A stretch of 20,000 nt of DNA from the IMG/VR virus record IMGVR_UViG_3300038428_000220; one strand, given 5' to 3'. The notes under the pieces were generated by a model, which ran no database searches, had not been told where the DNA came from, and was given only the letters and a program-made list of their open reading frames with translations. Each line of letters starts with the position of its first letter. The stretch's first letter is position 1. The position numbers were made by a program, and so were the translations under genes. Origin of the DNA: an uncultured virus (IMG/VR IMGVR_UViG_3300038428_000220). Lineage: Duplodnaviria > Heunggongvirae > Uroviricota > Caudoviricetes. Of the stretch, positions 513-19,999 are shown piece after piece.

Positions 513-735
513 GTGGGTCCCCCAAAGCGTGATTGATCGTTCCGGAAGGGACAGCGGCTGTTACCAGCGCGTCATGGGTGCCAGCACCCAGTCCCGACGA
601 TCATTCACGGCACCCAGGGGGGCGGGCGCGTGGGGGACAACGGCGATCTATCGCACGACCAACGTCACAAGGTCGGCCAGTCTCGGCCGGGACCCCAGGT
701 TGCGCGCCTAGCCTGCTAGGCCGCGCGAGTCACGA
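513..735 (-). promoter_or_regulatory. Structured 5' leader of the capsid gene (putative cis-regulatory RNA)
   Basis: Nested stems 517-524/631-638, 528-532/605-609, 534-540/597-603, 548-552/591-595; hairpins at 557-568 (GUAA loop on the mRNA), 575-590, 643-654, 656-675 and 702-726. The outer stem covers the SD. Confidence 0.55.
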
Positions 736-742
736 CACGCAA

Positions 743-772
743 TCTATAGAGCCGATTTAATTCGATTGTCAA
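743..772 (-). promoter_or_regulatory. Sigma70-type promoter for the capsid gene
   Basis: TTGACA (772-767), 17-nt spacer, CTATAG (749-744), in an AT-rich patch just downstream of a terminator. Confidence 0.6.
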
Positions 773-778
773 ATTGTG

Positions 779-818
779 GAAAAGAAAACGGCCACGTCGG
801 GTGTGAACCGGTGGCCGC
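779..818 (-). terminator. Rho-independent terminator after the scaffold gene
   Basis: Minus strand CGGCCAC...GTGGCCG stem followed by TTTTCTTTT. Confidence 0.6.
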
Positions 819-963
819 TTCCTTGACGCTCGCCCTTTGCCCATGTGGGGCCCGACTCGTGCCGGGGACGATACCAGACCTGGCCTGCCGTTTCCATGGC
901 CGCGACCAGAAGCCACCGAAATGGCCGCGTTGTCCGTTGTCGTCGCGGGTGGCTGACACCCGG

Positions 964-1620
964 CTATTGGTTGCCCAGACTGCGCAGCGCGTCCTTTTTT
1001 TGCTGCTCGTATGCGCGCTTGCCCTCGGGCGTCTTTGGGATATCGCGCACGCTTGTCGTCGGCGGCGCGGCCCCAGGCGCTGGTGGCGGCAGCGGCGACC
1101 CGGTACTGGCGCGCACCGGCGCTGCAGCTGGCGCTGCGGCCGGCTTGAACCAATCGGGCTTCTTAGTCTTGCCCGCCGCAATCGCCTCGCTAATGCCGGT
1201 GAACGTGCCGGTGGCCGGGTCGTACGACACGGCCTTTTTATCAATCAGCGGCAGCAGGTCGAGGTCGGTCAGCCCGGCCTGTATGGCCGCGGCCTTAAGC
1301 TCGGCGTCGATCAGCTGCCTGCGCGTCGCCTGCAGTTCGGTGTTGCCGGCCTCGCGCGCGGTACGCTCGCGATTATCCGCCTCGGTCTTGAGTCGCGTGA
1401 TTTCCGCGTTAGCCGCGTCGACCTGTTCCTTGGCGGTACGCGCCTCGACGCGATTTGCCGCAGCCTCGGCGCGTGTGTTCGCAACGGTGTTTTCCAGCAC
1501 GGCAATGCGGTCCTGATCGGTCTGACCAGCTTGCCGCGGGGGTATCGGCGGCGCGACCGGCGGCACAACTGCTGCAGGCGGGGGTGGGGGCGGCGGCGGT
1601 GCATTATGGACGTCAGACAT
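964..1620 (-). CDS. Capsid scaffolding protein
   Basis: Coiled-coil core followed by 'IDAELKAAAIQAGLTDLDLLPLID...KPDWF'; Pro-rich termini; GAGAGG SD; immediately upstream of the capsid gene. Confidence 0.75.
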   Translation of the reverse strand: MSDVHNAPPPPPPPPAAVVPPVAPPIPPRQAGQTDQDRIAVLENTVANTRAEAAANRVEARTAKEQVDAANAEITRLKTEADNRERTAREAGNTELQATRRQLIDAELKAAAIQAGLTDLDLLPLIDKKAVSYDPATGTFTGISEAIAAGKTKKPDWFKPAAAPAAAPVRASTGSPLPPPAPGAAPPTTSVRDIPKTPEGKRAYEQQKKDALRSLGNQ

Positions 1621-1646
1621 TTGGGGCCTCTCTTGGGGTTAAGAGA

Positions 1647-1730
1647 TCATAGATACCGTTTACGCAAAAACCAAGCCAAAATCACCATGCTCGGCGCGCA
1701 GTATATCACGAATGCGTGCCAGATCGTCAT
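1647..1730 (-). CDS. Small hydrophobic peptide (27 aa, single TM plus basic tail)
   Basis: MTIWHAFVIYCAPSMVILAWFLRKRYL; ATGA overlap with the upstream stop at 1727-1730. Confidence 0.45.
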   Translation of the reverse strand: MTIWHAFVIYCAPSMVILAWFLRKRYL

Positions 1731-3034
1731 GCCGCCTTGTCCAGATAGGCCGGGGTGTTGTCGTTCGATGCCGGGTCCAGGTCGCGGTTGAGCAGGTAGG
1801 GGAAATATCCCCACGCGAAGCCGTTGTCTTCGAACGCGATGTACCCGTAGCCATAAATGGCCATGTTGCCTTCGCAGTCCATGATCGGGTCGACGCTGTT
1901 GCGCGGCACCGCCGGCCCAACCATCGTCCAGGTCACGCCCTGGTCGGTGGACCGCCACATTCCATAGCCGGTTAAATCCGTTATGCCTCCACCCCACGAC
2001 ACAACATAAACTGAGGGATAGCTTTGCCCGGACGCGGGCGCACCGAAGCCGACGCACATCGGTTCTTTAATCAATGAACTTGAAATCGTCGCGAAGGTCG
2101 CGCCGCCGTCGGTAGAGTGGAACAGCGAACTTGCCCCCGGATGCACCACCGTGCCGCCCCCAACGAGCCCTCCGGCGATCCATATGTCGTTCGCATTGCT
2201 AGGAGTCGCCTTCAATCTGATTATGTTGAACCCGAAGGCGTGATTGCCCATGAACGTGACGGTGCCGCCGCCGCCCGTCAGCTTGTAAATTCCGCTGCGG
2301 GAACTTGAGGGACTGGTTGCCGAATTGGTAGTGGCGAGGGCGATGTAGAACGTCCCCGCGGTCACGCGGTCCGCTGCGGTGGTGTAGTAGGGCCTATACG
2401 GCTGGATCAGATCGTTGTTGGAGTTCGCGTAGAGCGACACGAACAGGCTGTCCGCGCTTCCGCTGCTGGCCGACGTCGCGGCCGCCAGCAAAGTCACGGT
2501 GCCGGCGGCGCACGAAGACACCACGCCGATAGTCTTGGGCGGGGAATAGGTGTAGTCGAAAATCTCGGCAGTGGGATAAATGCCGGCGCACGAGCCCCCG
2601 CTGATGGTCAGCGTCGTGTCGTGCAGGGCCCACGACGCGCCCGCCGTGACGGACACCGGATCGGCGACGCCGTTGAACAATAAATTGTCGCCGCTCGTAA
2701 CGGTCGCCAGCGAGTTCGCGTTGAGCGTCAGCGTGGTGCTCGCGCAGCTCACTATCTGTCCGATGTTGACGGCGCCGCCGCCCTGAATGTCCCACGCCGT
2801 TTCGCCGGCGACCGCCTTTGAGCAAGACCCGACCGTGAGCGTCGCGCTGCCGCTTGCCGAGGTGGCGCTCGCGGTCGTGGTCGCCGCCAGGCCCGACGTT
2901 GGGGTGGCGGCGGCGAGCGAAACGTGCGTCCACCCCGACCCGCCGGCCCCTACCCCGCCGTTCATGGTATAGAACGGAGCCGACAGGGCGTAGGTCAGAA
3001 GAATGTTCAGCGGCGTGCTGACGGCGAGGGCCAT
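1727..3034 (-). CDS. BNR/Asp-box beta-propeller protein, GH74 xyloglucanase-like C-terminal part (probably 5'-truncated; plausible frame extends to ~3064)
   Basis: Asp-boxes HSTDGGATF and RSTDQGVTW; GFGAPASGQSYPSVY is typical of the GH74 C-terminal propeller. The part of the 599-aa ORF above ~3064 reads as non-coding shadow. No clear SD at 3034. Confidence 0.65.
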   Translation of the reverse strand: MALAVSTPLNILLTYALSAPFYTMNGGVGAGGSGWTHVSLAAATPTSGLAATTTASATSASGSATLTVGSCSKAVAGETAWDIQGGGAVNIGQIVSCASTTLTLNANSLATVTSGDNLLFNGVADPVSVTAGASWALHDTTLTISGGSCAGIYPTAEIFDYTYSPPKTIGVVSSCAAGTVTLLAAATSASSGSADSLFVSLYANSNNDLIQPYRPYYTTAADRVTAGTFYIALATTNSATSPSSSRSGIYKLTGGGGTVTFMGNHAFGFNIIRLKATPSNANDIWIAGGLVGGGTVVHPGASSLFHSTDGGATFATISSSLIKEPMCVGFGAPASGQSYPSVYVVSWGGGITDLTGYGMWRSTDQGVTWTMVGPAVPRNSVDPIMDCEGNMAIYGYGYIAFEDNGFAWGYFPYLLNRDLDPASNDNTPAYLDKAA

Positions 3035-3531
3035 GCCGTATTGAACTTGGTTCGTGAAGTCGACGAGCCGGTCGCGATGCAATGCAGCGTCGTAACGCCG
3101 GTCGGAATCGTGAAAGCAAACCAGCCGCCGCCGGCCGTTATCTCCTGGTCGCTGGTCGTGGCGGCCACGCCATTGACGTTGCAATACATCGGGTTGGCGC
3201 CGACGTTCGACACTACCGTGACCGGGCCAGTCGGCAGCGTGCCGCTGCTGTCGGAGGTCGTGACCGACAGCGGCGTCATGCGCGCGCCGGTCACGCTGGG
3301 CGTAAAGCCGCCAAGGCTTGCCGACAGCGTACCAAACACTGGTATGCCGCCGCCGGCGCATGACGACGTGCCGTCGCTGTTGACGACCGGCACAGCCTTG
3401 CCGGTCGAGTTCAAGCAGTACAGCGACACGCGCGCGGCGGTGCCGTCGTATTTTTGCTGCGCCTGGGCGGGCGCCACGAGGAAAAGCGCGGCGATCGCCG
3501 CACTGACAATGGCAGCCTGTAAGCATTTCAT
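3007..3531 (-). CDS. Signal-peptide-bearing Gly/Ser/Thr-rich beta protein (likely N-terminal part of a broken gene)
   Basis: MKCLQAAIVSAAIAALFLVAPAQA is a Sec-type signal with an AxA site. Sequence quality collapses after IATGSST at ~3060. Confidence 0.6.
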   Translation of the reverse strand: MKCLQAAIVSAAIAALFLVAPAQAQQKYDGTAARVSLYCLNSTGKAVPVVNSDGTSSCAGGGIPVFGTLSASLGGFTPSVTGARMTPLSVTTSDSSGTLPTGPVTVVSNVGANPMYCNVNGVAATTSDQEITAGGGWFAFTIPTGVTTLHCIATGSSTSRTKFNTAWPSPSARR

Positions 3532-4901: not shown

Positions 4902-5198
4902 TCACGCCTTTTCCTTGGCGACCAACGACGCCGACACGCTGACGCCGGCCGATATGATGGCGCACCCCGGCGAGCCAAGATTGCCGCTCCAACCAACCGA
5001 GCCGCTGACCGACACATAGAAGTCCTGTTTGTCATTTGGCTCTGGAATAATGTTGACGAAAGCCATCACGGCAGTTCGCGCCTGCATGCGGTCGGCGGCA
5101 TGAATCGGCTGCGACGCCTCCACCTTGTCTAGCTCGGCGTCGACTTTTTTCATCACCTCGCGTTCGGTCGTCCCGCGTACACTGAATGAGTAGGACAT
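4902..5198 (-). CDS. Hypothetical phage protein
   Basis: MSYSFSVRG...; strong AGGAG SD; natural composition. Confidence 0.75.
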   Translation of the reverse strand: MSYSFSVRGTTEREVMKKVDAELDKVEASQPIHAADRMQARTAVMAFVNIIPEPNDKQDFYVSVSGSVGWSGNLGSPGCAIISAGVSVSASLVAKEKA

Positions 5199-5255
5199 TG
5201 ATGTCTCCTGGTGCAGATTTGCCGCAACCGGATGATTGCGGGGCCACCTATTTAA

Positions 5256-5492
5256 TCAGGTGTCGCACGGCTTGTCGATAAACGCTGGCGGTAACTTACG
5301 ACGCCGCGGTCGGAGAGGCCGGCCAAACACTGGCGCAATGCTGCGGTCGTGGCGTTCCATCCTATCCTCGTAGCTTTCCGCACGCACGATCGGCAGCAAA
5401 ATCACCATCGCGGGCTGCTCGCGGCGCACCGCCGGCGCGTAGGACGGCGCCCAGTCTGCAAACTGCACGACGTTACGGGCGCGCTTGCTCAT
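5256..5492 (-). CDS. Hypothetical protein
   Basis: MSKRARNVVQF...; its ATG is the TCAT target next to the IS left end. Confidence 0.6.
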   Translation of the reverse strand: MSKRARNVVQFADWAPSYAPAVRREQPAMVILLPIVRAESYEDRMERHDRSIAPVFGRPLRPRRRKLPPAFIDKPCDT

Positions 5493-5519
5493 CGTGACCT
5501 CGGGCGGAAACCCCGCCGT

Positions 5520-5951
5520 TCACGGCGGGGAGGAAGCCCGTTGAGCTTCCACGTATCGCTTGACCCTCTCAAGCGGAGCGCCACCAGCACTGGCGGCAAA
5601 GTAGGACGGCGACCAAAGAACACCGCGCCAATAACGAGCAGCGATATCCCGACGCTCAAGTCTGAGCAGTCGCGACGATGTTCCCTTGAGGGCGTTAACC
5701 AAGGCGGAAACGGAGTGCTTCGGCGGGTACTCAATAAGCAAGTGAACGTGATCTTTTTCGCCGTCACAGGCGATAAGCACACAATCCATTGCGGCGCAGA
5801 CCTTGCCAAAATGGCCTTTGAGCCAATTGATCGCTGGATCGTCAAGGAGCTTTCGACGATACTTTGTAACAAATACAAGGTGACAGACCAACTTAGTGAC
5901 GGAATGTCTACCCCTACGATATTCTGTCTTGTCCACTTGAAATCCCTCCAC
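5520..5951 (-). CDS. tnpA: IS200/IS605 Y1 HUH transposase
   Basis: HLVFVTKYRR, HUH motif DHVHLL, LWSPSYF, catalytic Tyr in YVEAQ. Confidence 0.95.
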   Translation of the reverse strand: MEGFQVDKTEYRRGRHSVTKLVCHLVFVTKYRRKLLDDPAINWLKGHFGKVCAAMDCVLIACDGEKDHVHLLIEYPPKHSVSALVNALKGTSSRLLRLERRDIAARYWRGVLWSPSYFAASAGGAPLERVKRYVEAQRASSPP

Positions 5952-5971
5952 AGACCAAGTAGATAGTCTGC

Positions 5972-7048
5972 ATGATTTTGACTTTCAAGTACAGGATCAA
6001 GGACGCGACAGTCGGGAAGTATCTCGACAGGCACTCGCGTTCGGTCAATTTTGTTTGGAACTACTGTTGCGAAACCCAGCGTAAGGTTGAAGCCTATTAC
6101 AAGGCAGGCGCACCTAAGCGCCGTTGGCCTTCGCATTTCGATCTCGTCAAGCTGACCACGGGTTGCGCAGCGGAACTTGGCCTGCACTCCGATACGGTCG
6201 GACAAATCTGCAAGCAGTTTGTAATCTCGCGCAACGCGGCCCGACATGCTCCGCGTTTCCGCGCCAGCAGGGGCCCCAAGCGAGCCCTCGGCTGGCTGCC
6301 CTTTATCAAGCGCACCGTGAAACTCGACGGCGCGCACGTTGTCTACCTCAAACGTAAATTCCATTTCTGGAAGTCGCGGGATATCCCCGACGCCATCAAG
6401 ACGGGCTGCTTTACTCAAGACGCCCGTGGTCGCTGGTATGTTTGTTTCCAGTGCGAGGTTGCCGACGATCTGCCAACTGGCAACGGCGAAGTCGGGATTG
6501 ATCTTGGATTGAAGACCCTCGCCACATGCAGCAACGGCGACACTATCTCCGCCTTGCGGCATTATCGCAAATATGAGGCTACGCTCGCCATTGCACAGCG
6601 CGCCGGACATAAGCAGCGCGTCAGGGCTATCCACGCCAAGATAGCGAACGTGCGCAAGGACCAACTTCACAAGGCCAGCAGCAAGATTGCTGCGGAAAAC
6701 CAACTTATCGTTGTCGGCAATGTCAGCGCCGCACAGCTTGCCAAAACGCGAATGGCTAAGTCCGTTCTCGATGCAAGCTGGTCGATGCTGCGGAACATGC
6801 TCGAATATAAAGCCAGCAGGCACCGGGCGCGTTACGTTGAAGCCGATGAGCGTTGGACTTCCCAAGTGTGTTCGTGCTGCGGGACAATTCCCGACAGCAG
6901 TCCGAAAGGTATGGGCGCACTTGGAATAAGACATTGGGTATGCTCAGACTGTGGTTGCTCGCATGATCGCGACGCGAACGCTGCTCGGAACATTCTCCGT
7001 GTCGGGGCGGAACGTCGCCCACCTGTAGAGGAAATCCCCGCCCTTTAG
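5972..7048 (+). CDS. tnpB: RNA-guided endonuclease TnpB
   Basis: RuvC-I GIDLGLK; Zn finger CSCCG...CSDCG; RuvC-III DRDANAARNI; ends in the RE hairpin. Confidence 0.95.
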   Translation: MILTFKYRIKDATVGKYLDRHSRSVNFVWNYCCETQRKVEAYYKAGAPKRRWPSHFDLVKLTTGCAAELGLHSDTVGQICKQFVISRNAARHAPRFRASRGPKRALGWLPFIKRTVKLDGAHVVYLKRKFHFWKSRDIPDAIKTGCFTQDARGRWYVCFQCEVADDLPTGNGEVGIDLGLKTLATCSNGDTISALRHYRKYEATLAIAQRAGHKQRVRAIHAKIANVRKDQLHKASSKIAAENQLIVVGNVSAAQLAKTRMAKSVLDASWSMLRNMLEYKASRHRARYVEADERWTSQVCSCCGTIPDSSPKGMGALGIRHWVCSDCGCSHDRDANAARNILRVGAERRPPVEEIPAL

Positions 7049-7061
7049 GGCGGGGAAGACG

Positions 7062-7280
7062 TTAAGCTGCCCTCGTGTATTCCCACCTAAAGTTGCCGCC
7101 CGGCAGTGGGTGCTTGCTGCGCTTGACGCGGCCAACGGCCGCTAGGTGACGCAGCATGGTGTCGACGCTCTCCGGTGACCAGCAGCCCACGCGCTCCCAT
7201 ATCTCGCGCGCGCCGCGCGGGTGGCTGTCCACCACCGACATAATCTGGTCGAGCGTCGCTGGGCTGAATCCACCAGTCAT
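7062..7280 (-). CDS. Small winged-helix-like protein
   Basis: 'AREIWERVG...SVDTMLRHLAAVGRVKR' wHTH pattern; ATGA-coupled start; stop supplied by the IS right end. Confidence 0.6.
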   Translation of the reverse strand: MTGGFSPATLDQIMSVVDSHPRGAREIWERVGCWSPESVDTMLRHLAAVGRVKRSKHPLPGGNFRWEYTRAA

Positions 7281-7504
7281 GGTCTAATAATTCCCCCCAA
7301 CAGTCTGGCGTCCAGCCGCTTGGCGCTGACCGGCACACCGATTCGCGTCTCGATCAGATTGGCCAGCCGGCACGGTATGCCGTCGGCCCAGCCCAGATAG
7401 TTTATCAGCGGCACGCCCAGCTCGTGCGCGGCCTCGGCCGGCGTGTAGCGATTGCGCTTTTGCCAGGCCTGCAGCTGCAGGGCGATGTTGCGGGGTGCTG
7501 CCAT
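7277..7504 (-). CDS. XRE-like HTH protein
   Basis: 'LQAWQKRNRYTPAEAAHELGVPLINYLGW' HTH pattern. Confidence 0.65.
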   Translation of the reverse strand: MAAPRNIALQLQAWQKRNRYTPAEAAHELGVPLINYLGWADGIPCRLANLIETRIGVPVSAKRLDARLLGGIIRP

Positions 7505-7507
7505 TGG

Positions 7508-7696
7508 TCAGCCCGTCAGCTTGTCCAGCAGAATCTTGTGCGCCAGCTGCGCGGCGCGGAATCCGCTTTCAAATCTCGTGATTGCAACATTGGTGTCGGC
7601 TTCCGTGACGATGCCGCTGCAGAGGACGCCAAACAGCAGCGACACATGCGCGTTGAATGCGTCGTCCAGCGCTTTGGTGATCTGCTCTTTGGTCAT
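7508..7696 (-). CDS. Hypothetical protein (62 aa)
   Basis: MTKEQITKALDDAFNAHV...; GGGAG SD before ATG 7696. Confidence 0.6.
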   Translation of the reverse strand: MTKEQITKALDDAFNAHVSLLFGVLCSGIVTEADTNVAITRFESGFRAAQLAHKILLDKLTG

Positions 7697-7824: not shown

Positions 7825-8282
7825 GCGTCACCAGCTGGGTCGGGTGCGCGCTGCCGGACTGGCATCCAGACTATGCTGGCAACGGTCGACACGCTGGCGT
7901 GCCCGCTCGTTGCCCTGATTGTTAGACCATGCAGGAATCCACCGTCCATCATGAACGACCCCATAATAGCTGCTGGGGCCTGGTAGATCGCCCGACCATT
8001 GCGTGTATCGTAAGCAATGCGTCGTTGCTTATGTTCGTCGATCTGCGCCTGCGTCGAGCCAGGCCGCAGGGGCGCAGGTTCTTCCATATTGTCGCCGGGG
8101 AAGTGGCCGCCCACGTCAGGGATTCCATCAAAGGCTTCAAGCGCACCGGCGCCAGCGTGTGTGCATGCGATGGTGCGCAAAATGCCGGGTCCTTCCTCAA
8201 GGATAAAAGTGCCCTTGCGGTCGAGAAGCCATATTTTGCCGCCCAGCGGCGGCAGATCGACGCGGATTCTAACTGGCTTCAT
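7821..8282 (-). CDS. Hypothetical protein (paralog of 4549-4872)
   Basis: Starts MKPVRIRVDL at the ATGA overlap with the portal stop. Confidence 0.7.
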   Translation of the reverse strand: MKPVRIRVDLPPLGGKIWLLDRKGTFILEEGPGILRTIACTHAGAGALEAFDGIPDVGGHFPGDNMEEPAPLRPGSTQAQIDEHKQRRIAYDTRNGRAIYQAPAAIMGSFMMDGGFLHGLTIRATSGHASVSTVASIVWMPVRQRAPDPAGDA

Positions 8283-9994
8283 GCGTTCACCGTCGTGCGC
8301 GGCCCTATGTTCATGCCGCCTACCTGCGCGGGACCGGCCGCCGGGCTGGCCGACTCGGGCTGGTCGGCCGGCGTGCCGGGCTCCACCGGCACGTCGACTG
8401 ACGTCGGCTGCGGCGCCATTGGCGTGGCCTCGTCGGGCTCCGTCGGGCTGTCGTCGACCGCGTCCTGTTCTTCGCCGGCGTCCTCCATGTCGATCATGGA
8501 CAAATCCAGCACCTGCGCGATGTAGGCCTTGGCTTCCTCGAACGTAATAAGCTGTTCTTCCGGCTTTGGCTCGGTCGCCGGCACGGCGTCGACATGCGCG
8601 CCCTGCGCGCTGGCCGGCCTGCTGCCTGGTTGCGCTGGCGCGGTCTTTTTCATCGGATCCAACATGATTTGGAACGCTTGGGCGAGCGAGAACACCTCGT
8701 CGGGCGTCGGCTGGAACATGCGCGGCCACTGCAGCGTGAAGCCGCCGGCGTCCTTGTCGATCTTGGACGCAATCGCTATCTTTTTGATCAGCGGCAGCGC
8801 ACCATGCTCGCCGTACTGGCTGCGCAGGTCGCCCACCATGTCGTCGCTGTCCTGGTCGAGGTACTCCATGGCGCGCCCAGACAGCGGGGCTTTCATTTTG
8901 TCGGGGTCTTTACGGCTGGCCGCGATCTGCTCGAGCGCCATGTTGCGCAGGTGGTCGATCAGCTTGAGCGCCGCCTCGGTGCCGGTGCCGGACATTTCCA
9001 GCAGCTTGGCGTCGCCGACGCCGACCATGCTGCCGTCCTCGTCCTTGTAACCGGCTTCCATTTCCAGGTGCGTCATGGGCCCGCGCGTCACGGCGCCGTT
9101 CATCACCTTGCCGATCGTCACCAACTGCGGCGCGCTGTTGTAGCGCGTGCCGCGACCGATTTGGCTCAACGTGTAGTCGAGCTCGACGCTGTTGGGGATT
9201 GCGTCTTCGAACGTGCAGCAGCCGTCGGGCGCCAGGCCGCCGCCCAGATTGACAAACCAATGCGCGCACACAAAGCCCAGGTCGTGCTTGTATTCCTCGC
9301 CGGCCCACGGCTCTAACTTTTTGTTGGCCGCGCCCTCGCCGACAAAGCCGTGCACGGGATTCCATTCGACCTTCTTGACCGGCTGATACGTCACCTCGCC
9401 GGTCGGCAGCCAGTCGCGGATATACCAATACTCTTGGCCCTTCTCGACGCCAGGCGCCCCCATGGCTTCAAGCGCTGCCCCGCTGGTCGTGTAGGCAACG
9501 CGCAGCTGCGCCAGCTCCCCCATGTCGTCAAAGCTGGGTTGGCAGTATTTGGCGCGCCAGCATTGCAACGCCACCTTGGGGTTTTTGCCGCCTGTGGTTT
9601 CGACGCGAAACGTGACGGCCACGGCGCCGACGCTGCCCAGCAGCACGGCTTCTGCCATGCGTTCAAAAAACTTGCCCTTGCGCAGCAGCGCCGCCATGGA
9701 CGCAATCTTGGCCTTGTCCTTGTGGCGCACCTTGGGCGCGTGCCGGCCGGTGAACAGCTTGCGGGTGCACCAGCGCGCGACCATGCGCGGCAGCCGGTAC
9801 TGCGCCGACGGTCGGCGCTCGGTCAGCGGTATCAGCTCCTGCGTGCCTGGCTTGACCTCGTCGTAAAACGCATAGTTCAAATGATTGTAAAAGGTGCCGT
9901 CGAGCAGGCGGTCGCGCAGGTCAAGGCAGCGATAGCGCGAGTCCTCGCTGGCCCAGTCGGGGTATCGGATCGCCTGCGCGATTTTGCGGAACAT
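8279..9994 (-). CDS. Portal protein (SPP1 gp6-like) with acidic/Pro-rich C-terminal tail
   Basis: 571 aa downstream of terL; 'ELDYTLSQIGRGTRYNSAPQLV', 'LSGRAMEYL', 'LQWP' pattern of SPP1-type portals. Confidence 0.8.
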   Translation of the reverse strand: MFRKIAQAIRYPDWASEDSRYRCLDLRDRLLDGTFYNHLNYAFYDEVKPGTQELIPLTERRPSAQYRLPRMVARWCTRKLFTGRHAPKVRHKDKAKIASMAALLRKGKFFERMAEAVLLGSVGAVAVTFRVETTGGKNPKVALQCWRAKYCQPSFDDMGELAQLRVAYTTSGAALEAMGAPGVEKGQEYWYIRDWLPTGEVTYQPVKKVEWNPVHGFVGEGAANKKLEPWAGEEYKHDLGFVCAHWFVNLGGGLAPDGCCTFEDAIPNSVELDYTLSQIGRGTRYNSAPQLVTIGKVMNGAVTRGPMTHLEMEAGYKDEDGSMVGVGDAKLLEMSGTGTEAALKLIDHLRNMALEQIAASRKDPDKMKAPLSGRAMEYLDQDSDDMVGDLRSQYGEHGALPLIKKIAIASKIDKDAGGFTLQWPRMFQPTPDEVFSLAQAFQIMLDPMKKTAPAQPGSRPASAQGAHVDAVPATEPKPEEQLITFEEAKAYIAQVLDLSMIDMEDAGEEQDAVDDSPTEPDEATPMAPQPTSVDVPVEPGTPADQPESASPAAGPAQVGGMNIGPRTTVNA

Positions 9995-11217: not shown

Positions 11218-13827
11218 TCACCTTGCGAAGATCGGCAGCACCTGGGCGCCGCCGGACTGCGGCTGCGTGCGCTTTTTCTTCTGCAGCCTGGCGTAGCCGC
11301 CCGTCATGGCGTCGGTCTGGTCCTTGAACTTGCTGCCGGGGAAGTTTGTCACTTCCTCCAAAAACGTGTCGTTCCACGGCCCGACGACAATCTCGACGTT
11401 ACCATTTTCGGCCTGCGCCGCCATGGGCTCCGCGCGGTCGATCTTGCTGCCCGTCTCAATCAGCTTATGCGCGTCAAAGCCGTCCAGCATGCTGACCATG
11501 TCTCGCGCCACCGTATTGTGCACGACGATATCGCGCACTAGAAACGACGCCTGTCCGCGTACCGTCAGGCAGCGGCACGGTCGGACGCCAGCCGGCGTCA
11601 CGGACATGACCTGATCCGGCAAATAGTCCTCGTCGAAACGGCGATAGATCGACGCGTTGGCCAGCGACGCCAGTCGGGCGGCCTTGAACGAGTGGTGCAC
11701 CGGAATTCGCTTCAAAAACCGGCCATAGGCGTCGTCCTGCTGGCGCATGCGCAACAGCCAGCTACGGTGGCGTTTCTCCAGATATTTGCCATTCTTGGTC
11801 TTTAGCGTCGAATTGATGCCAAGCCGCAGCAGCAGGTGCTGCACATCCTCAAGCAACGCCTTGCTGACGCTGTAGAATATGACCTCGTGCGCGTCTTTCG
11901 ATACGAATCCGTCACAGGCGAAATAGGCCCCAAGGAATTCAGCCACCAACGGGCTGGGGGCGCCAAACACCCATGCTGGCACACGTTTGGTATAGGCATT
12001 GTGCCCGGCCAGTCCGGTATCACGCAGCCATGACTGCAAGCCCGCTGCGTTGATCTCGCCGCGCCGGTAACCATTGCTGGTGCGGCCACCAACGGATTGC
12101 ACGCAATGCCGGAAGTCCAGCAGCTCAACATGGTCGTGACAACAGAACGACGATTTGCTGCTTTGCACCTTGCGTTCCGGTCGTCGGATGCTTGTCACCG
12201 ATCCATCGCCAATAAAATAGCCAGCAAGCCGGAACTCTTCCGCCGAACGATCAGCGATCGCCGCTATGCGCGGAGTACTGCGGAGCGCGACAACGCTGCC
12301 TGGGCGCAGGGCGCCGGCAGCCACCCAATCGTCTGGCGTGAGAAACGGGTGGTCAAGCGCCGCCACGACTTCGCGCCCGGATCCTGTCTTAATGCACACC
12401 GTCGGCAAGTCGCCCTGTTGAAACACAGCGTCGACCATCCCAGGCACACCATCCTTGCCTATGACGGTGTCACCAACAATGATTTCCTTAAGCGGCACCT
12501 GTTGGCCATCGCCGCGCAAGATCAATTCTTCCTCCCAGATTGGCTTGCCGGCGCTGCCAGGGTCTTGCGGCACCTGCACCTCGTAGCTACCGCCCAGCTG
12601 GGCAATGCGTATCTGGTCGGCCAGCGCCGTCGCCTTGACCAGCCGGCGCACCAGGGGCGCCTGCTCGCGACAGCGCTGCACGTCGGCAATGCAGTATTGC
12701 GACAATGTCGGGTGCTTGCCCAGCAGCACGCCGGCGGTGTAGGGCGGGTCGGCCGTATAAGTCGCCTCGGTGTCCGCCAGGTCCCAGTGCCGCACCCAGC
12801 GATAGCCCAGCGGCATGGCTGGCCTGGGCTTGAACCAGGCGCGCTTGAACATGCCGCCTTCGCGCGGCACCGGAGTCTGTTGGTGTTGCCCAGAAACTGC
12901 GTATGCGGTCATCTCGCGTTCAAGTGCATCCACGGTAGCTAACGGGAATCGTTCAGGAAATAGCAATTCCCCCTCTTGCCGGCGCGGGTCAGTGAATATC
13001 GGCGTCGTGCAGTGCCGGCCTTGCTCGTACCGCATGGGCAGCACCAGGGCTATGTGCTGCACCCCGATTTGCTCCCACACCCCGCTGGGGTCATCCTGAT
13101 GCACCCGCTGCATAATCAGCGCGATGGCCGACGCCACCGGGTCATTAAGACGAGTTGGCACCGATTCCCGCATGATGAACTTAGCCTGCTCGCGATCGGC
13201 GTCCGACTTGGACTGCGGCACCGACAGCGGGTCGTCGATCGTCAGCACGTCGCCGCGGCCGCCGGTCAGCCCCTCGAACGCCACGCCCTCGCGTGTGCCC
13301 TTGCTCGAATTCTCAAACGACGTTTCGGCCACGCGTGTCAGCTTCACATGCGGCCAAAGCGTCTGATACCAGTCCGAAAGGATCAAATCGCGGGTCTTGC
13401 GCGTGTCGCGCTTGACGTAATCCGCCGAATAGCTGGTCGACAGGAAACGCCGGTGTGCCAGATTGCACGGTCCCCATTGCCAGGCGTTCCATAAAACACT
13501 GACAATCAATGATTTCCCGACGCCTGGCGGCACATTGAAGCGCACCTTGTTCGGCAGCCCCATGGCCAGGAAACGACCCCAGGTCAGAGCCTCAAGGTGA
13601 TCGCATATCGCACGCACCACCCAGCCCTCGACAAACTGCGTCCTGGGCTCAAGGACGTGCCAGGCCTCGCGCACAAAGCCGATTAAGGTCTGGCAGCGCG
13701 CGCGGATAGCATCCGCGTTCGCCTGCGTGTCTGCCCGCTCGCGCTCAGTGGCTCGTTGGTGCTTTGCCTGCTGGATCGCCTGCAGCAGTTGGGTCGGCGA
13801 GATTCGCGACAACACTGAGAGCGCCAA
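11218..13827 (-). CDS. terL: Terminase large subunit, intein-containing (start uncertain; ORF open to 13893)
   Basis: Walker A VPPGVGKS; GGRGDVLTIDDP (Walker B); IMQRVHQDD; nuclease motifs WDLA and FPGSKFKDQTDA. Confidence 0.92.
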   Translation of the reverse strand: MALSVLSRISPTQLLQAIQQAKHQRATERERADTQANADAIRARCQTLIGFVREAWHVLEPRTQFVEGWVVRAICDHLEALTWGRFLAMGLPNKVRFNVPPGVGKSLIVSVLWNAWQWGPCNLAHRRFLSTSYSADYVKRDTRKTRDLILSDWYQTLWPHVKLTRVAETSFENSSKGTREGVAFEGLTGGRGDVLTIDDPLSVPQSKSDADREQAKFIMRESVPTRLNDPVASAIALIMQRVHQDDPSGVWEQIGVQHIALVLPMRYEQGRHCTTPIFTDPRRQEGELLFPERFPLATVDALEREMTAYAVSGQHQQTPVPREGGMFKRAWFKPRPAMPLGYRWVRHWDLADTEATYTADPPYTAGVLLGKHPTLSQYCIADVQRCREQAPLVRRLVKATALADQIRIAQLGGSYEVQVPQDPGSAGKPIWEEELILRGDGQQVPLKEIIVGDTVIGKDGVPGMVDAVFQQGDLPTVCIKTGSGREVVAALDHPFLTPDDWVAAGALRPGSVVALRSTPRIAAIADRSAEEFRLAGYFIGDGSVTSIRRPERKVQSSKSSFCCHDHVELLDFRHCVQSVGGRTSNGYRRGEINAAGLQSWLRDTGLAGHNAYTKRVPAWVFGAPSPLVAEFLGAYFACDGFVSKDAHEVIFYSVSKALLEDVQHLLLRLGINSTLKTKNGKYLEKRHRSWLLRMRQQDDAYGRFLKRIPVHHSFKAARLASLANASIYRRFDEDYLPDQVMSVTPAGVRPCRCLTVRGQASFLVRDIVVHNTVARDMVSMLDGFDAHKLIETGSKIDRAEPMAAQAENGNVEIVVGPWNDTFLEEVTNFPGSKFKDQTDAMTGGYARLQKKKRTQPQSGGAQVLPIFAR
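11515..12543 (-). mobile_element. Intein (343 aa) with LAGLIDADG homing endonuclease, in TerL
   Basis: AGK|PIWEEELILRGDG...; block B ALDHPF; LAGYFIGDGS and FLGAYFACDG; block F CRCLTV; ends VVHN|T. Confidence 0.9.
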
Positions 13828-14251
13828 GGACTCGCTCGAATTGCTCAATATCGCCCTCCGGTAGTTTGCCCAAGATGGCCGCCAGTGCCGCAATGTCCAG
13901 CGGACTACCGTCCGGATTGGTGTGCGCCACGCCGGTCAGCCGGCGGTGGCAATACATCGCGGCATCGCGCGCGGCCATGCGGGCATACGATAGCTCATTC
14001 CTGACCAATTCGCGGTCCAGCGGCCGACCGCCTTCCCTGCCCTCGTCAGCCTTGGCGCGCGCCTGCTCGCGTCCGGCTTCGTCCATGTGGTATCTGGCGA
14101 TCGACAGCAGCATGTCGGCCGGGCTGGCACCGGCATGCAACGTCTTTATTTCGGCCGCCACCGCGCTGGCGCTGCTCGCAACGCCTGGAATGGCCAATTT
14201 ATCGGCTTTTGGCTTCCGCCCGGCACCTGGTCGCCATCCACCTCGTGGCAT
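13745..14251 (-). CDS. terS: Terminase small subunit
   Basis: N-terminus MPRGGWRPGAGRKPK; 'AARDAAMYCHRRL...NPDGSP'; directly upstream of terL. Confidence 0.75.
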   Translation of the reverse strand: MPRGGWRPGAGRKPKADKLAIPGVASSASAVAAEIKTLHAGASPADMLLSIARYHMDEAGREQARAKADEGREGGRPLDRELVRNELSYARMAARDAAMYCHRRLTGVAHTNPDGSPLDIAALAAILGKLPEGDIEQFERVLGALSVVANLADPTAAGDPAGKAPTSH

Positions 14252-14433: not shown

Positions 14434-14660
14434 ATGCTCGTTTACAAAATCACCAACATGCTGACCGGTGCCGAGTACGTCGGGCTGACGTGCCGCAGAT
14501 TGCTGACAAGGTGGAGCGATCACAAGGCGAAGGCGCGTGCCGGAACAAAAACGCCGCTATACAACGCAATGCGTAAATATGGTTTTGCTGCATTTTCGAT
14601 CGAGGCAGTTGCGTCTGCCAAGTCCTACGATGCGCTAAAAGCCGCCGAGGTGGCGATCAT
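14434..14660 (+). pseudogene. GIY-YIG endonuclease, truncated by IS insertion
   Basis: LVYKITN...EYVGLT...RWSDH...LYNAMRKYG...E; the frame runs into the IS left end at 14661. Confidence 0.8.
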
Positions 14661-14869
14661 CGTGACCTCGGGCGGAAACCTCGCCGTTCACGGCGGGGAG
14701 GAAGCCCGTTGAGCTTCCACGTATCGCTTGACCCTCTCAAGCGGAGCGCCACCGGCACTGGCGGCAAAGTAGGATGGCGACCAAAGAACACTGCGCCAAT
14801 AGCGAGCAGCAATATCCCGGCGCTCAAGTCTGAGCAGTCGGGACGAGGTACCCTTGAGGGCATTAACCA
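14661..14869. mobile_element. IS605 remnant (left end plus 3' part of tnpA)
   Basis: 209 bp matching 5493-5701, with 11 differences by manual count (~95% identity). Confidence 0.9.
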
Positions 14870-14908
14870 TGCTTATCCGGTTTAGACACACAGCCCTAGA
14901 TGTAGTGG

Positions 14909-15535
14909 TCACGGGAATACCAGCGTTTTGCCATTCCATGCGCAGTCAGGAATGTTCAATTTGATGTAAGCCAAAATGTCGGCGTCCAGCGTGGCGCGCT
15001 TGGCCTTGTAGTCGGCGTACAGCGTGGCGCGCTTGGCCTCGTAGTCGGCGTACAGCGGGGCGTGCTTGGCCTTGTAGTCGGCGTACAGCGGGGCGTGCTT
15101 GGCCTTGTAGTCGGCGTCCAGCGTGGCGCGCTTGGCCTTGTAGTCGGCGTACAGCGTGGCGCGCTTGGCCTTGTAGTCGGCGTCCAGCGGGGCGTGCTTG
15201 GCCTCGTAGTCGGCGTCCAGCGTGGCGCGCTTGGCCTTGTAGTCGGCGTACAGCGTGGCGCGCTTGGCCTCGTAGTCGGCGTACAGCGTGGCGTGCTTGG
15301 CCATCGCCTCACAACCGCCCAGATAGATCATGTTGTGTAAGCGGATAGCCACTTCGTTCTTCGGCTTTTTACGCTTCACATAATCAATGCGTTCATTCAC
15401 ATCGTGTGACTCTTCGCACAACTGTTCATGGTGCAGAAAACCAAACCAGCCTTTCGTCGGGCCAGTGTAATTGTAGCGACCTGGAAACAATGTATTCTCG
15501 ATCTTCTTGCGGCGCGGATGATTAACCATTTTCAA
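14909..15535 (-). CDS. Hypothetical protein with 11-aa helical tandem repeats (start may be ATG 15529)
   Basis: AGAGGA SD; unique N-terminal domain, ~10 x AK[RH]A[TP]L[YD]ADY[KE], C-terminus IPDCAWNGKTLVFP. Confidence 0.75.
   Translation of the reverse strand: MKMVNHPRRKKIENTLFPGRYNYTGPTKGWFGFLHHEQLCEESHDVNERIDYVKRKKPKNEVAIRLHNMIYLGGCEAMAKHATLYADYEAKRATLYADYKAKRATLDADYEAKHAPLDADYKAKRATLYADYKAKRATLDADYKAKHAPLYADYKAKHAPLYADYEAKRATLYADYKAKRATLDADILAYIKLNIPDCAWNGKTLVFP
14978..15301 (-). repeat. 33-bp coding tandem repeat, ~9.8 copies
   Basis: Head-to-tail units with no spacers, in frame with the CDS. Confidence 0.95.
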
Positions 15536-15628
15536 GTCCTCTGCCCCTGAAATCCCCGAGGCGCGGGATCAACATCTAGTGGCTCTTAGCAGTTGTGTGC
15601 GTCAACCGGATAAGCATGCAAGAGACAG

Positions 15629-15856: not shown

Positions 15857-16125
15857 GGCGTCACCATGGCCGCTATTTTTCGGCCAACCTCTAGGGCGTT
15901 GGTCATGTCCTCATTAAGATTTTCAACGATCAAATGCGCGATGGCCTGCGCGTTCGGCGTCTGACGCGACGGCGCGGCAGCTATCATAGCTTTCCAATCA
16001 CGCGCAGCGCACAGGTCATCGGTCCATAATTTGCCGTTCTGCAAATCGATCCCAAGGTGAGAAACCGACCATGCAAGGCACATTTCGAGCGTTGGCTCGG
16101 TCGGCACGCATTTCCATTCTGTCAT
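15853..16125 (-). CDS. Hypothetical phage early protein
   Basis: 'WKCVPTEPTLEM...WKAMIAAAP', a motif common in phage early genes. Confidence 0.75.
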   Translation of the reverse strand: MTEWKCVPTEPTLEMCLAWSVSHLGIDLQNGKLWTDDLCAARDWKAMIAAAPSRQTPNAQAIAHLIVENLNEDMTNALEVGRKIAAMVTP

Positions 16126-17908: not shown

Positions 17909-19999
17909 TCAACGGAATTCTTCGAATTGCGGCTCACCGGGTGCCAGCAAACTGGGAACCGGTTCTGGGCGTGCGCCGTGCCCGACCGGCGGCTCATCGA
18001 CTCCATGGACTTTGCGGTGAGTCCGCCACACATAGTCGCCGGATTTACCAATTAAATCCATCTTAGTGTTCCATTGATAATCTGCGTAAGTCCGTTCAAT
18101 CGCTTTCTTGCAACGGGCGCGTAATTTTCGGCCGTCAGGGTCGGCCGGGTCGACGCTGAATCGGATTTCGCACAACGCATCGATCCACTCGCCGACGCGC
18201 ACGCAGCGCTGGCCATGCGGCGTGTTGGCCTCGGCCGGCGCCGGCGCGCCCTTGACGCGTAACGCGTTGACCAGTGCGCGCATGATGATTTGATTATTGG
18301 GCCGCATTTCAATGTAACCGTGCGGAATCGTGCGCGAGGGCGCAGCTGGCCCGACCAGCTCATGCACCACGCAGCTGGTGTCGGGCTCGCCATCCTGGTC
18401 GGGGCCAAGATTTATCTGCTTCAACACAAACCTGCGGGTAATCCCGCCTTCCGCGTCTTTTTGCTTGGTGACGACCATTTCGCGGATGTCGCGCTGGACG
18501 CGCCCGCTGCTGACTTCCTCGCTGTCGACCTGCTCGGTGCGGATGACCTCGACGGCGTTCTCCACATTGCCCAGCAGCGACGAGTGACCGCGCGGGCTGC
18601 CGCCCAGCTTGGGCGTGTGATGCACCAGCGCGACGTGCGCGCCAGTCTCGATCGCCATGCGGTGACAGCGCTGCAGCACCTTGCTGACGTCCTCGCTGGC
18701 GTTTTCGTTGGCCCCCGGCGACGCCGCGCTAAAGGTGTCGATCACCACCAGCTCGAGAGGTGCGTCATAGAACGCCGCCCAAGACTTAATTTCCTCAATC
18801 AGTTTGTTCGTATGATCGTCGGCGCCGAACAGGTCGACGCGGCTGGGCAGCAGCACGAATGGCAGATTGTCGTCGTGCTTGATTTTGTGGTGACGCCGGT
18901 ACGCGCGCAGCCGTTTCTTGAGCCCCAGGCCGCCCTCGCCGGCCTGATAGACGGCAAGGCCGGGACGCACGCGCATGCCCATCCAGCTGACGCCGCGGGC
19001 GATCGACAGCGCGGCGTCCGTGATTAAAAAACTCTTGCCGCAAGAGGGAGGCCCGTACCAGATCGACACCTCGCCGCGCGTCAGTATCTTTTTAATCAGC
19101 CACTCGAGCTCGCGCGCCGGCTTGTCCAGGTCGACAAACCGGATGGCGTTGAACGACGACTCGGGCGGTACCGGCAGCCAGTCGGCCAATAGGTCGACAA
19201 TCGCAAACAGCTTGTCCTTGCTGCCGCCAGCGTGCGCGCGCCAGTCCGTGACGTCGGCACCCTCGGGGCATTCTTTCCACTGCGCGCGCCAGTCCAGCAC
19301 GCGCACGCGGCGCGCTATGCCGCGCAGCGACGCCGCCTTGCGGTGCCCGTATTCGCGTCCGCTGCGGTCGTTGTCGATCAGCACCACCACGTCGGCGTCG
19401 CGCAGCTGCTCGGCGTGATGCGGCGACCATTTTTTGCTGCCGCCGCTGCTGTCGGTGGCGACCAAGCCCCAGGCGGCCAGCGTGTCGCAATCCTTCTCGC
19501 CCTCGGGGCTGAAAATAATCCGCTGCTCGTCGCCGGGCTGCGCTAGTTCCTCGGCCAATTGCGGAAGCCGGTATAGGCCGTGCGCGACGCCGTCGAAAAT
19601 CCGCACGGCGGAGCCCGACCATTTGGCGCGGCGGTCGTCGGTCGCGCTGTACCAGTCCTTGTTGCGGCCCTGGATATACTCGGCCTCGTCCAGGCCCCAT
19701 ATCCAACCGCCGCCGGCGTCGGTCGGGGCCTTGCGTCGTTGCAGGAACGACTTTTTGCGCTTGCCGGCGTCCAGCCATTCGAGCCGGCAGACCTGGTACA
19801 GCAGCCCGCCGGCGTCGTCGGTGTAATCGTACGCCGCGGTGATTTCGCGCCGCGTGTTGGCGGACGGCGCGCCGGTGTCGCCATGCCCGTTGGGCTCGTT
19901 AGGATGAGGCTCGTGCGCCGACGCAGCCGGCCGGCCCGGGCGATCCGCGCCGGGCAGGGGGATTCCGGCCAGCTGCGCCAGAGTCTCGACGGACTGCAT
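17909..19999 (-). CDS. Primase-helicase (TOPRIM plus RepA/AAA_25 helicase); probably extends past the window
   Basis: TOPRIM EGEKD and DND; Walker A GPPSCGKS; AGEG; Walker B VVIDT; VHHT..GG..RGHSSL. Confidence 0.88.
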   Translation of the reverse strand: MQSVETLAQLAGIPLPGADRPGRPAASAHEPHPNEPNGHGDTGAPSANTRREITAAYDYTDDAGGLLYQVCRLEWLDAGKRKKSFLQRRKAPTDAGGGWIWGLDEAEYIQGRNKDWYSATDDRRAKWSGSAVRIFDGVAHGLYRLPQLAEELAQPGDEQRIIFSPEGEKDCDTLAAWGLVATDSSGGSKKWSPHHAEQLRDADVVVLIDNDRSGREYGHRKAASLRGIARRVRVLDWRAQWKECPEGADVTDWRAHAGGSKDKLFAIVDLLADWLPVPPESSFNAIRFVDLDKPARELEWLIKKILTRGEVSIWYGPPSCGKSFLITDAALSIARGVSWMGMRVRPGLAVYQAGEGGLGLKKRLRAYRRHHKIKHDDNLPFVLLPSRVDLFGADDHTNKLIEEIKSWAAFYDAPLELVVIDTFSAASPGANENASEDVSKVLQRCHRMAIETGAHVALVHHTPKLGGSPRGHSSLLGNVENAVEVIRTEQVDSEEVSSGRVQRDIREMVVTKQKDAEGGITRRFVLKQINLGPDQDGEPDTSCVVHELVGPAAPSRTIPHGYIEMRPNNQIIMRALVNALRVKGAPAPAEANTPHGQRCVRVGEWIDALCEIRFSVDPADPDGRKLRARCKKAIERTYADYQWNTKMDLIGKSGDYVWRTHRKVHGVDEPPVGHGARPEPVPSLLAPGEPQFEEFR

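Follow-up and report, generated by a model that had tools for sequence, protein, structure and literature searches.

An IS200/IS605-family element inserted 3' of TCAT at a stop/start overlap in the late operon of an uncultured phage

Main finding

The 20,000-nt stretch of DNA analysed here (the window) comes from an uncultured virus of the Caudoviricetes (IMG/VR record IMGVR_UViG_3300038428_000220) and carries, at 5493–7065, an insertion sequence (IS) that interrupts a four-base ATGA overlap between the stop codon of one phage gene and the start codon of the next. We interpret it as an ordinary, intact-looking TCAT-class element of the IS200/IS605 family whose location at the overlap is a by-product of its target motif and of selection, and give this interpretation a probability of roughly 0.7. 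The silent fit of the element between its neighbours is real at the level of the reading frames and is explained by the motifs at its ends. Specialization for translational-coupling junctions, which a first-pass annotation made from the letters alone had put forward, is possible, although the data do not favour it beyond what survivor bias accounts for. The features of the insertion site are as follows.

5489–5492, plus strand: target and predicted transposon-adjacent motif (TAM) TCAT; on the minus strand ATGA, comprising the downstream ATG and, in the empty allele, the upstream TGA
5493–7065, plus strand: IS200/IS605-family element, 1573 bp, IS605-type layout (Pfam and PHROG matches, alignment of relatives, empty-allele contig)
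5493–5535, plus strand: left end (LE), with ACCTC at 5497–5501, guide GAAA at 5507–5510 and hairpin at 5511–5530
6864–7065, plus strand: right end (RE), with guide AAAT at 7032–7035, hairpin at 7036–7055 and motif TTAA at 7062–7065
5520–5951, minus strand: tnpA, Y1 HUH transposase (Pfam Y1_Tnp, E = 2.4e-37, covering 18–137 of 143 aa)
5972–7048, plus strand: tnpB (OrfB_IS605, 6e-14; Cas12f1-like_TNB, 8.6e-22; phrog_506, E = 2.8e-71)
7062–7280, minus strand: upstream phage gene, 72 aa, G+C at third codon positions (GC3) 0.79, ending GCT TAA
5256–5492, minus strand: downstream phage gene, 78 aa, GC3 0.77, with its ATG at 5490–5492 retained

Organization of the element

The element combines the characters of the IS200/IS605 family: a Y1 TnpA, an accessory TnpB, no target duplication and subterminal imperfect hairpins rather than terminal inverted repeats. 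Both hairpins are GC-rich and are kept in relatives; the loop of the left one holds the tnpA stop codon and the loop of the right one the tnpB stop codon. The left end begins directly after TCAT with CGTGACCTCGGG and the last letters of the element, ending at 7065, are GACGTTAA. These limits agree with the relatives L012 and L016 (94% identical) and L017 (85%), which align over element positions 1–1573 and are unrelated to the window outside it. The translation of tnpA contains the HVH motif and the C-terminal Tyr; the gene probably begins at its second GTG (5936), which follows GGAGG. The starts of tnpA and tnpB diverge and lie 20 nt apart, which is the IS605-type layout, with tnpB antisense to the phage operon and tnpA running in the direction of the operon, as the first-pass annotation had noted, and ending 24 nt upstream of the ATG of the phage gene.

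The junctions leave both neighbouring reading frames intact. The ATG of the downstream gene is part of the target TCAT, and on the minus strand the left end supplies GAGGT (the complement of ACCTC), then CACG and the ATG, a gap of 4 nt. On the other side, the stop codon of the upstream gene (7062–7064) lies inside the right end, and its final codon GCT together with TAA uses IS bases 7062–7065; the transposon-encoded motif TTAA contributes, through its complement, T followed by TAA. In the empty allele the same gene ends with a synonymous Ala codon (GCA) followed by the TGA of the overlap. The insertion at a stop/start overlap with both frames preserved, the unchanged final Ala before the new stop and the GAGGT placed 4 nt before the downstream ATG had all been described previously, and every one of these features is present in the sequence.

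A 481-codon open frame on the minus strand (5489–6934) runs antisense to tnpB and out of frame through tnpA, ending at the TGA of the target ATGA; from its composition (GC3 0.57–0.63) it is probably non-coding. Metagenome runs X2 and X18 contain IS variants with a 238-bp deletion (window 6784–7021) in the 3' part of tnpB, and the relative L030 is another internally deleted copy, so that decayed copies circulate in the same habitats.

Empty and occupied alleles

Removal of 5493–7065 had been predicted to restore a coupled ATGA overlap. A 226-nt contig from metagenome run X19 joins 5492 to 7066, skipping 1573 bases, with zero shared bases at the joint, and displays the predicted four-base stop/start overlap with GAGG 5 nt upstream. 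The absence of shared bases indicates that no target duplication took place, and the contig establishes that the empty allele exists and is identical to the earlier reconstruction. Protein searches of IMG/VR with the two flanking genes and the portal did not find an empty allele, returning only the same phage with the element present.

The occupied allele is documented by long contigs in run X2 that bridge both junctions. It occurs in three assemblies, which represent nearly identical phages and count as one event. Several runs also contain loose contig ends, with left breaks at 5489 and right breaks at 7065, that mark other insertion sites with TCAT and the same right end. Of 24 listed peat and wetland runs, 18 hold at least half of the sampled words; contigs were examined in four of those runs, and three are possible sources of the window. 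Given the three assemblies and the abundance in peat and wetland runs, the cost of the occupied allele is tolerable.

Target and end motifs among relatives

TnpB searches recovered loci from viruses (23), genomes (10) and metagenomes (80). Among species genomes, the scan yielded only 10 distant loci; one species genome with 13 copies, a subclade with a different right-end motif, was set aside, and the records of five relatives lack flanks. Unfiltered, the DNA beyond the tnpA stop comprises 35 rows, two of them truncated, and TCAT directly precedes the left end in 32 of the 33 that are readable. The exception, L094, has TCAC as its target and GAAG in place of GAAA as its left-end guide, the covariation expected if GAAA pairs with TCAT and GAAG with TCAC. 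After deduplication and addition of tnpB-only elements, TCAT is found at 33 of 33 unique junctions, with position −5 unconserved (A4, C11, G7, T11). The fixed TCAT target proposed for this lineage is thus borne out.

Unique right-end terminal motifs are TTAA (52), TCAA (9), TTAC (5) and TTAT (2), the non-TTAA ends having been detected by a pattern that requires the form T-Y-A-N, which makes them not independent. The bases before the right hairpin track the end motif: read by eye, AAAT accompanies TTAA, AAAG accompanies TTAC in five of six cases and GAAT accompanies TCAA in seven of nine. Because the target and the end motif both take the form T-Y-A-N through similar guides, the in-register stop codon follows from the structure of the ends and, taken alone, is no evidence of adaptation. 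Two further relatives, L069 and L070, share the same IS and a right flank that is 99.7% identical over 1671 nt, while their left flanks are unrelated and both end in TCAT, either through an assembly chimera or through a rearrangement on the left-end side.

Based on what is known of the family, the following course of events may be proposed. The Y1 TnpA would have pasted a single-stranded circle 3' of TCAT into the strand complementary to the late operon, without duplication. Where genes are packed as densely as in this phage, the TCAT sites at which an insertion is not lethal are mostly ATGA overlaps, and the surviving copy for that reason sits in one. Insertion 3' of TCAT leaves the whole ATGA to the downstream gene and takes from the upstream gene its last base and its TGA; the upstream gene then reads into the complement of the right end, meeting T and then TAA (TGA in the TCAA variants), with at most its last residue changed. 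TTAA resembles the target in that similar DNA guides read both, and the complementary stop is thereby placed in the register of the lost TGA. Translation of the downstream gene may be helped by the left-end GAGG and by the tnpA stop, which lies 24 nt upstream. Guided by an RNA from the right end, TnpB would cut the empty allele (TCAT plus the bases from 7066), which would favour retention, or homing in co-infections.

Insertion sites and survivor bias

The distribution of insertions was examined at 24 unique sites with both flanks, for each of which the empty site was modelled. The controls were the 489 other ATGA sites on both strands of the same contigs that lie 90 nt or more from a contig end.

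Start-like: 11/24 insertion sites, 79/489 controls, p = 9e-4
Open reading frame (ORF) of 60 or more codons with the TGA as its stop: 13/24 insertion sites, 85/489 controls, p = 9e-5
Both start-like and ORF end: 6/24 insertion sites, 24/489 controls, p = 0.0015
Either start-like or ORF end: 18/24 insertion sites, 140/489 controls, p = 6e-6

Retained copies are clearly concentrated at gene boundaries. Among the 32 informative left flanks, 20 carry an ORF that begins at the ATG and spans 50 codons or more, or 25 or more in the case of an open ORF. The question is what selection alone would leave. The window contains 85 TCAT/ATGA sites on both strands, among which, by our own classification from ORF length and GC3, about nine are credible overlaps and about 7–8 lie in spacers. 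The overlaps are at 16122, 10297, 8279, 7821, 7693, 7277, 5489, 5032 and 1727, several of them with very small ORFs, which makes the earlier count of at least nine plausible. With overlaps and spacers available in about equal numbers, selection alone would place roughly half of the surviving insertions at overlaps, and survivor bias is enough to explain the concentration at boundaries. The expectation that this element is enriched at ATGA overlaps relative to all TCAT sites consequently stands in part: gene boundaries are enriched relative to all ATGA sites, but not beyond survivor bias.

No orientation bias was detected when strands were called by the longest open frame (15 versus 10; 29 versus 27), and a best-frame test by GC3 on the downstream side gave no difference, the controls being equally biased (19/29 versus 556/994, p = 0.35). 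A distant subclade in isolated phages of Ralstonia, Acinetobacter and Salmonella (42–46% TnpB identity, right end GTCAA) has no TCAT at its left end and lies in spacers, with the IS oriented with the phage genes, an orientation relative to those genes that is opposite to that of the main element. Phage-borne IS605 elements with other specificities therefore also end up between genes.

Left-end ribosome-binding motif and transcription

The first-pass annotation had expected the left-end Shine–Dalgarno (SD) motif to be conserved. In the close clade, GAGG stands at 5 nt in all six distinct left ends, which are however close kin. Over 29 unique left ends, GAGG, GGAG, GGAGG or GGGG is found at 5–8 nt in only 14, and the motif is accordingly conserved only in part; among the others, seven have a weak GGAA, three have the motif at 0 nt and 5–6 have none, mostly tnpB-only elements. 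The mean anti-SD pairing energy is −4.76 kcal/mol for the left ends, −3.63 for shuffles and −4.40 for the native sequence upstream of the modelled empty sites. In the informative cases, left ends lie at gene starts in 5/5 instances without a motif, 11/16 with a strong motif, 4/8 with GGAA and 0/3 with a spacing of 0. RNA folding before the ATG gave a low accessibility of the SD motif, similar with and without the element (0.30 versus 0.17). The left-end motif may help downstream translation in the present phage; a need for it, or selection for it, is not supported by the data.

On the operon strand TTTCCTCT follows the right-end hairpin, which was flagged as terminator-like. This speaks against the 'near-silent' insertion that had been suggested, as does the failure to find a sigma-70-like promoter in 5200–7400, which may make tnpA and the phage genes behind it dependent on read-through.

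Second copy and third site in the phage lineage

A second copy of the element lies further along the window.

14657–14869, plus strand: TCAT followed by a 209-nt left-end remnant, 95% identical, comprising left-end sequence and the 3' portion of tnpA

It had been noted that both IS copies follow TCAT, which is correct; the second, however, is a remnant of 209 nt only and there is no overlap at its site. It sits within a plus-strand GIY-YIG homing-endonuclease ORF (14434–14712; Pfam and PHROG), and its TCAT (14657–14660) spans two Ile codons (GCG ATC ATC). Since this copy is inside a coding sequence, it is evidence for the TCAT target but lends no support to a preference for overlaps. No copies beyond these two are present in the nearest virus record. 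A full-length copy at the homing-endonuclease site, in L046, was considered and rejected as a probable assembly chimera, the letters switching from those of copy 2 to those of copy 1 between IS positions 21 and 94. The remnant is truncated at 14869 by a 751-bp segment (14868–15618) bounded by 25-nt inverted repeats (14868–14892 and 15594–15618; 88% complementary). This segment encodes a 208-aa minus-strand protein (14909–15535) with ten 33-nt tandem repeats, for which no family match above threshold was found.

A third site is provided by L012 and L016, whose left flank is identical (100%) to window 710–1730 and whose right flank begins at window 3532. Their IS exactly replaces window 1731–3531, from TCAT to TCAT, as 1727–1730 and 3528–3531 both read TCAT. 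Base 1731 is G, which assigns the C after TCAT to the element. Both junctions coincide with ATGA boundaries of the gene at 1727–3531. The arrangement possibly reflects replacement by TnpA between two targets, natural absence of the gene, or two collapsed copies; an exact-flank search for a variant lacking both 1731–3531 and the IS returned the three contigs already known and no others. Two of the three junction sites in this phage lineage are thereby at ATGA boundaries. The large gene at 1727–3531 seems to start at the ATG at 3529–3531, which is preceded by GGAG and lies 1 nt beyond the stop of the upstream gene, with 174 codons of GC3 0.83, while the listed 599-aa ORF (1727–3526) is in another frame than this start. 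The conflict could be due to a frameshift near 3000, either programmed or an assembly error, or to two overlapping genes.

TnpB active site and guide RNA

The tnpB product matches ISDra2 TnpB structures (E = 8e-19) and retains the RuvC-I and RuvC-III Asp residues. The Glu of the ISDra2 RuvC-II motif GTEHL aligns with Gly in VVGNV, a residue kept in 78 of 78 relatives, and the canonical D-E-D triad is therefore absent. The protein matches the 'rearranged catalytic site' type, and activity is plausible. Rfam gave a weak omega-RNA-like signal over the right end (6864–7056; sot0042, 20.5 bits, gathering threshold 88), and HgcC was reported at both element ends (24.9 and 25.2 bits, gathering threshold 50). 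We infer that TCAT, as the target, would also be the TAM of this TnpB.

Alternative explanations

A different interpretation makes the element a specialist for operon junctions, in which the TCAT target, the stop codon in the complement of the right end and the outward SD motif behind tnpA evolved for silent settling, with tnpA expressed by read-through. Several observations speak for such a specialist and weigh against a mere by-product. The enrichment at starts and stops is strong (odds ratio 4–7), and a target preference beyond TCAT is possible. Composition calls placed nine downstream flanks on the tnpA strand, four on the opposite strand and 14 as unclear, with the ATG in frame in 9/9 same-strand cases; for the upstream flanks the corresponding numbers were 15, nine and 36, the frame ending in the TGA in 11/15. 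An SD-like block in 14 of 29 differing left ends is not what pure chance predicts, and the GAGG shared at 5 nt by the six left ends of the close clade points the same way. The lack of a recognizable sigma-70-like promoter also makes it possible that tnpA is expressed by read-through from the operon. Several peat and wetland metagenomes contain the occupied allele in abundance, and its cost is hence low. In addition, contigs may be chimeric across repeats, which introduces noise on both sides of the site comparison. Against the specialist, elements devoid of an SD motif sit at gene starts no less often (5/5) than those with a strong one (11/16), and three left ends carry the motif at a useless 0-nt spacing. 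The right-end stop follows from the T-Y-A-N form, and the statement that there is always a stop is partly circular since detection required that form. On the operon strand the right-end hairpin resembles a terminator, the second copy hit a coding sequence, the share of overlaps does not exceed the approximately one half expected from survivor bias and there is no bias in orientation. We therefore hold a junction specialist to be decidedly unlikely. Its extension, in which ribosomes are handed on to the host gene, colonization is nearly costless and TnpA removes or swaps genes at boundaries, as the L012/L016 locus hints, seems to us quite improbable.

Two further accounts compete with the by-product interpretation. 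The site may have been reached by TnpB-guided homing, a break at the empty site being repaired from an occupied genome, in which case persistence would reflect drive and not low cost. Both alleles occur in nature (X19 has the empty one and X2 the occupied one), and three assemblies carry the element at this site. Other homing elements are present in the phage (the terminase intein with its LAGLIDADG domain and the GIY-YIG gene), and homing by TnpB is established for IS605-family elements (preprint 10.1101/2023.03.14.532601). Homing accounts, however, for spread and not for how the site arose; the assemblies with the element are near-identical and amount to one event, in TnpB the canonical RuvC-II Glu is missing and activity is putative, and the guide-RNA signal in Rfam is far below threshold, all of which makes this account rather unlikely. 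Alternatively, the neat fit (synonymous Ala, stop, equal SD spacing) may be a coincidence at one site, with no general meaning. The synonymous change does rest on a four-fold degenerate Ala codon, other reconstructed sites alter the upstream end (L014 gains a residue and L017 keeps its own TAG) and the 5-nt spacing common to the native and IS-borne SD motifs is a single case. An immediate stop and a retained ATG nevertheless follow from the end motifs at any ATGA overlap, and we regard coincidence as unlikely.

If the location is a by-product, the phage offers a natural example, with occupied and empty alleles, of a target-specific single-strand transposon in a phage late operon, and one of use in annotation, as the stop codon of the upstream gene lies inside the element. 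If the fit was selected, target choice and ends of IS200/IS605 elements would have been shaped by the translational grammar of host operons; this would explain the spread of such elements and of TnpB nucleases through compact viral genomes, and would suggest scar-free landing sites for engineered insertions.

Phage context

Most genes of the window are on the minus strand, according to the ORF list and profile searches. Those assigned by ORF and family search within this minus-strand-dominated region include the following.

3–512: major head protein
964–1620: scaffold
8279–9994: portal-like protein
11218–13893: large terminase with intein and LAGLIDADG domain (Pfam LAGLIDADG_3, 9.5e-20; Intein_splicing, 6.2e-5)
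17909–19999: primase/helicase

With its terminase intein bearing LAGLIDADG, GIY-YIG gene and IS copies, the phage is rich in selfish elements. Between the scaffold stop and the major head start, 451 nt (513–963) contain no convincing ORF, which is unusually long for a dense genome. The nearest virus record is 34 kb in length and 49% complete and has all sampled words in common with the window; a megablast search of 5000–7600 against isolated phages gave no match.

Comparison with known systems

Insertion at N|ATGA, with termini 5'-TT and CG-3' and no duplication, is described for several IS605B and ISC families by Kapitonov, Makarova & Koonin (2016; PMC4810608), where 12 empty sites were used for IS605B-1_MA. 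Read on the minus strand, the present element starts with TTAACG and ends with ...TCACG, followed by ATGA, and it thus has the termini and target of that N|ATGA group. The target (5' of ATGA, equivalent to 3' of TCAT), the termini, the lack of duplication, the subterminal hairpins and the Y1 transposase are shared with IS605B-1_MA and the ISC elements as described there. The elements in that paper are chromosomal (Microcystis, of which one strain has 46 copies, Halomonas, Marinobacter), whereas the present one resides in a peat phage and has tnpA as well as tnpB. The main text of that paper, supplements aside, uses none of the words 'codon', 'operon' and 'intergenic' and does not make the link to overlaps; literature searches, judged mostly from listings, found no paper linking a TCAT/ATGA target to stop/start overlaps. 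The ATGA target itself was published in 2016 (PMC4810608), and the present element is a new member of the ATGA-target IS605 group.

IS608 and IS605 of Helicobacter pylori likewise insert by Y1 peel-and-paste 3' of a tetranucleotide, IS605 with divergent orfA and orfB, and in them too 4-nt DNA guides 5' of the hairpins read the target and the last four bases. They differ in their target, TTAC and not TCAT, and in a TnpB with the canonical triad. The guide pairs of IS608 are TTAC/AAAG and TCAA/GAAT. The DNA-guide principle is documented for the ISGst elements and IS608, and the identity of TnpA target and TnpB TAM is established for ISDra2 and ISGst (preprint 10.1101/2023.03.14.532601). The same source describes an ISGst guide RNA that targets the empty donor joint and alternative end selection at look-alike motifs. 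ISGst5 (IscB) and ISGst2 (TnpB), both from Geobacillus stearothermophilus, have TAMs identical to their TnpA targets, and that of ISGst5, TTCAT, contains TCAT; the ISGst TAMs are, however, 5 nt long, in contrast to the unconserved position −5 here, and ISGst5 encodes IscB, not TnpB. The RuvC-II-rearranged branches of TnpB (RIIr), described in PMC10691335, likewise have Gly for the canonical Glu. IStrons and free-standing phage homing-endonuclease genes are comparable in being selfish and in persisting in compact genomes by doing little harm. IStrons achieve silence through RNA splicing and homing genes by lying between genes, whereas the silence of the present element, if real, stems from the reuse of stop and start codons in the DNA itself.

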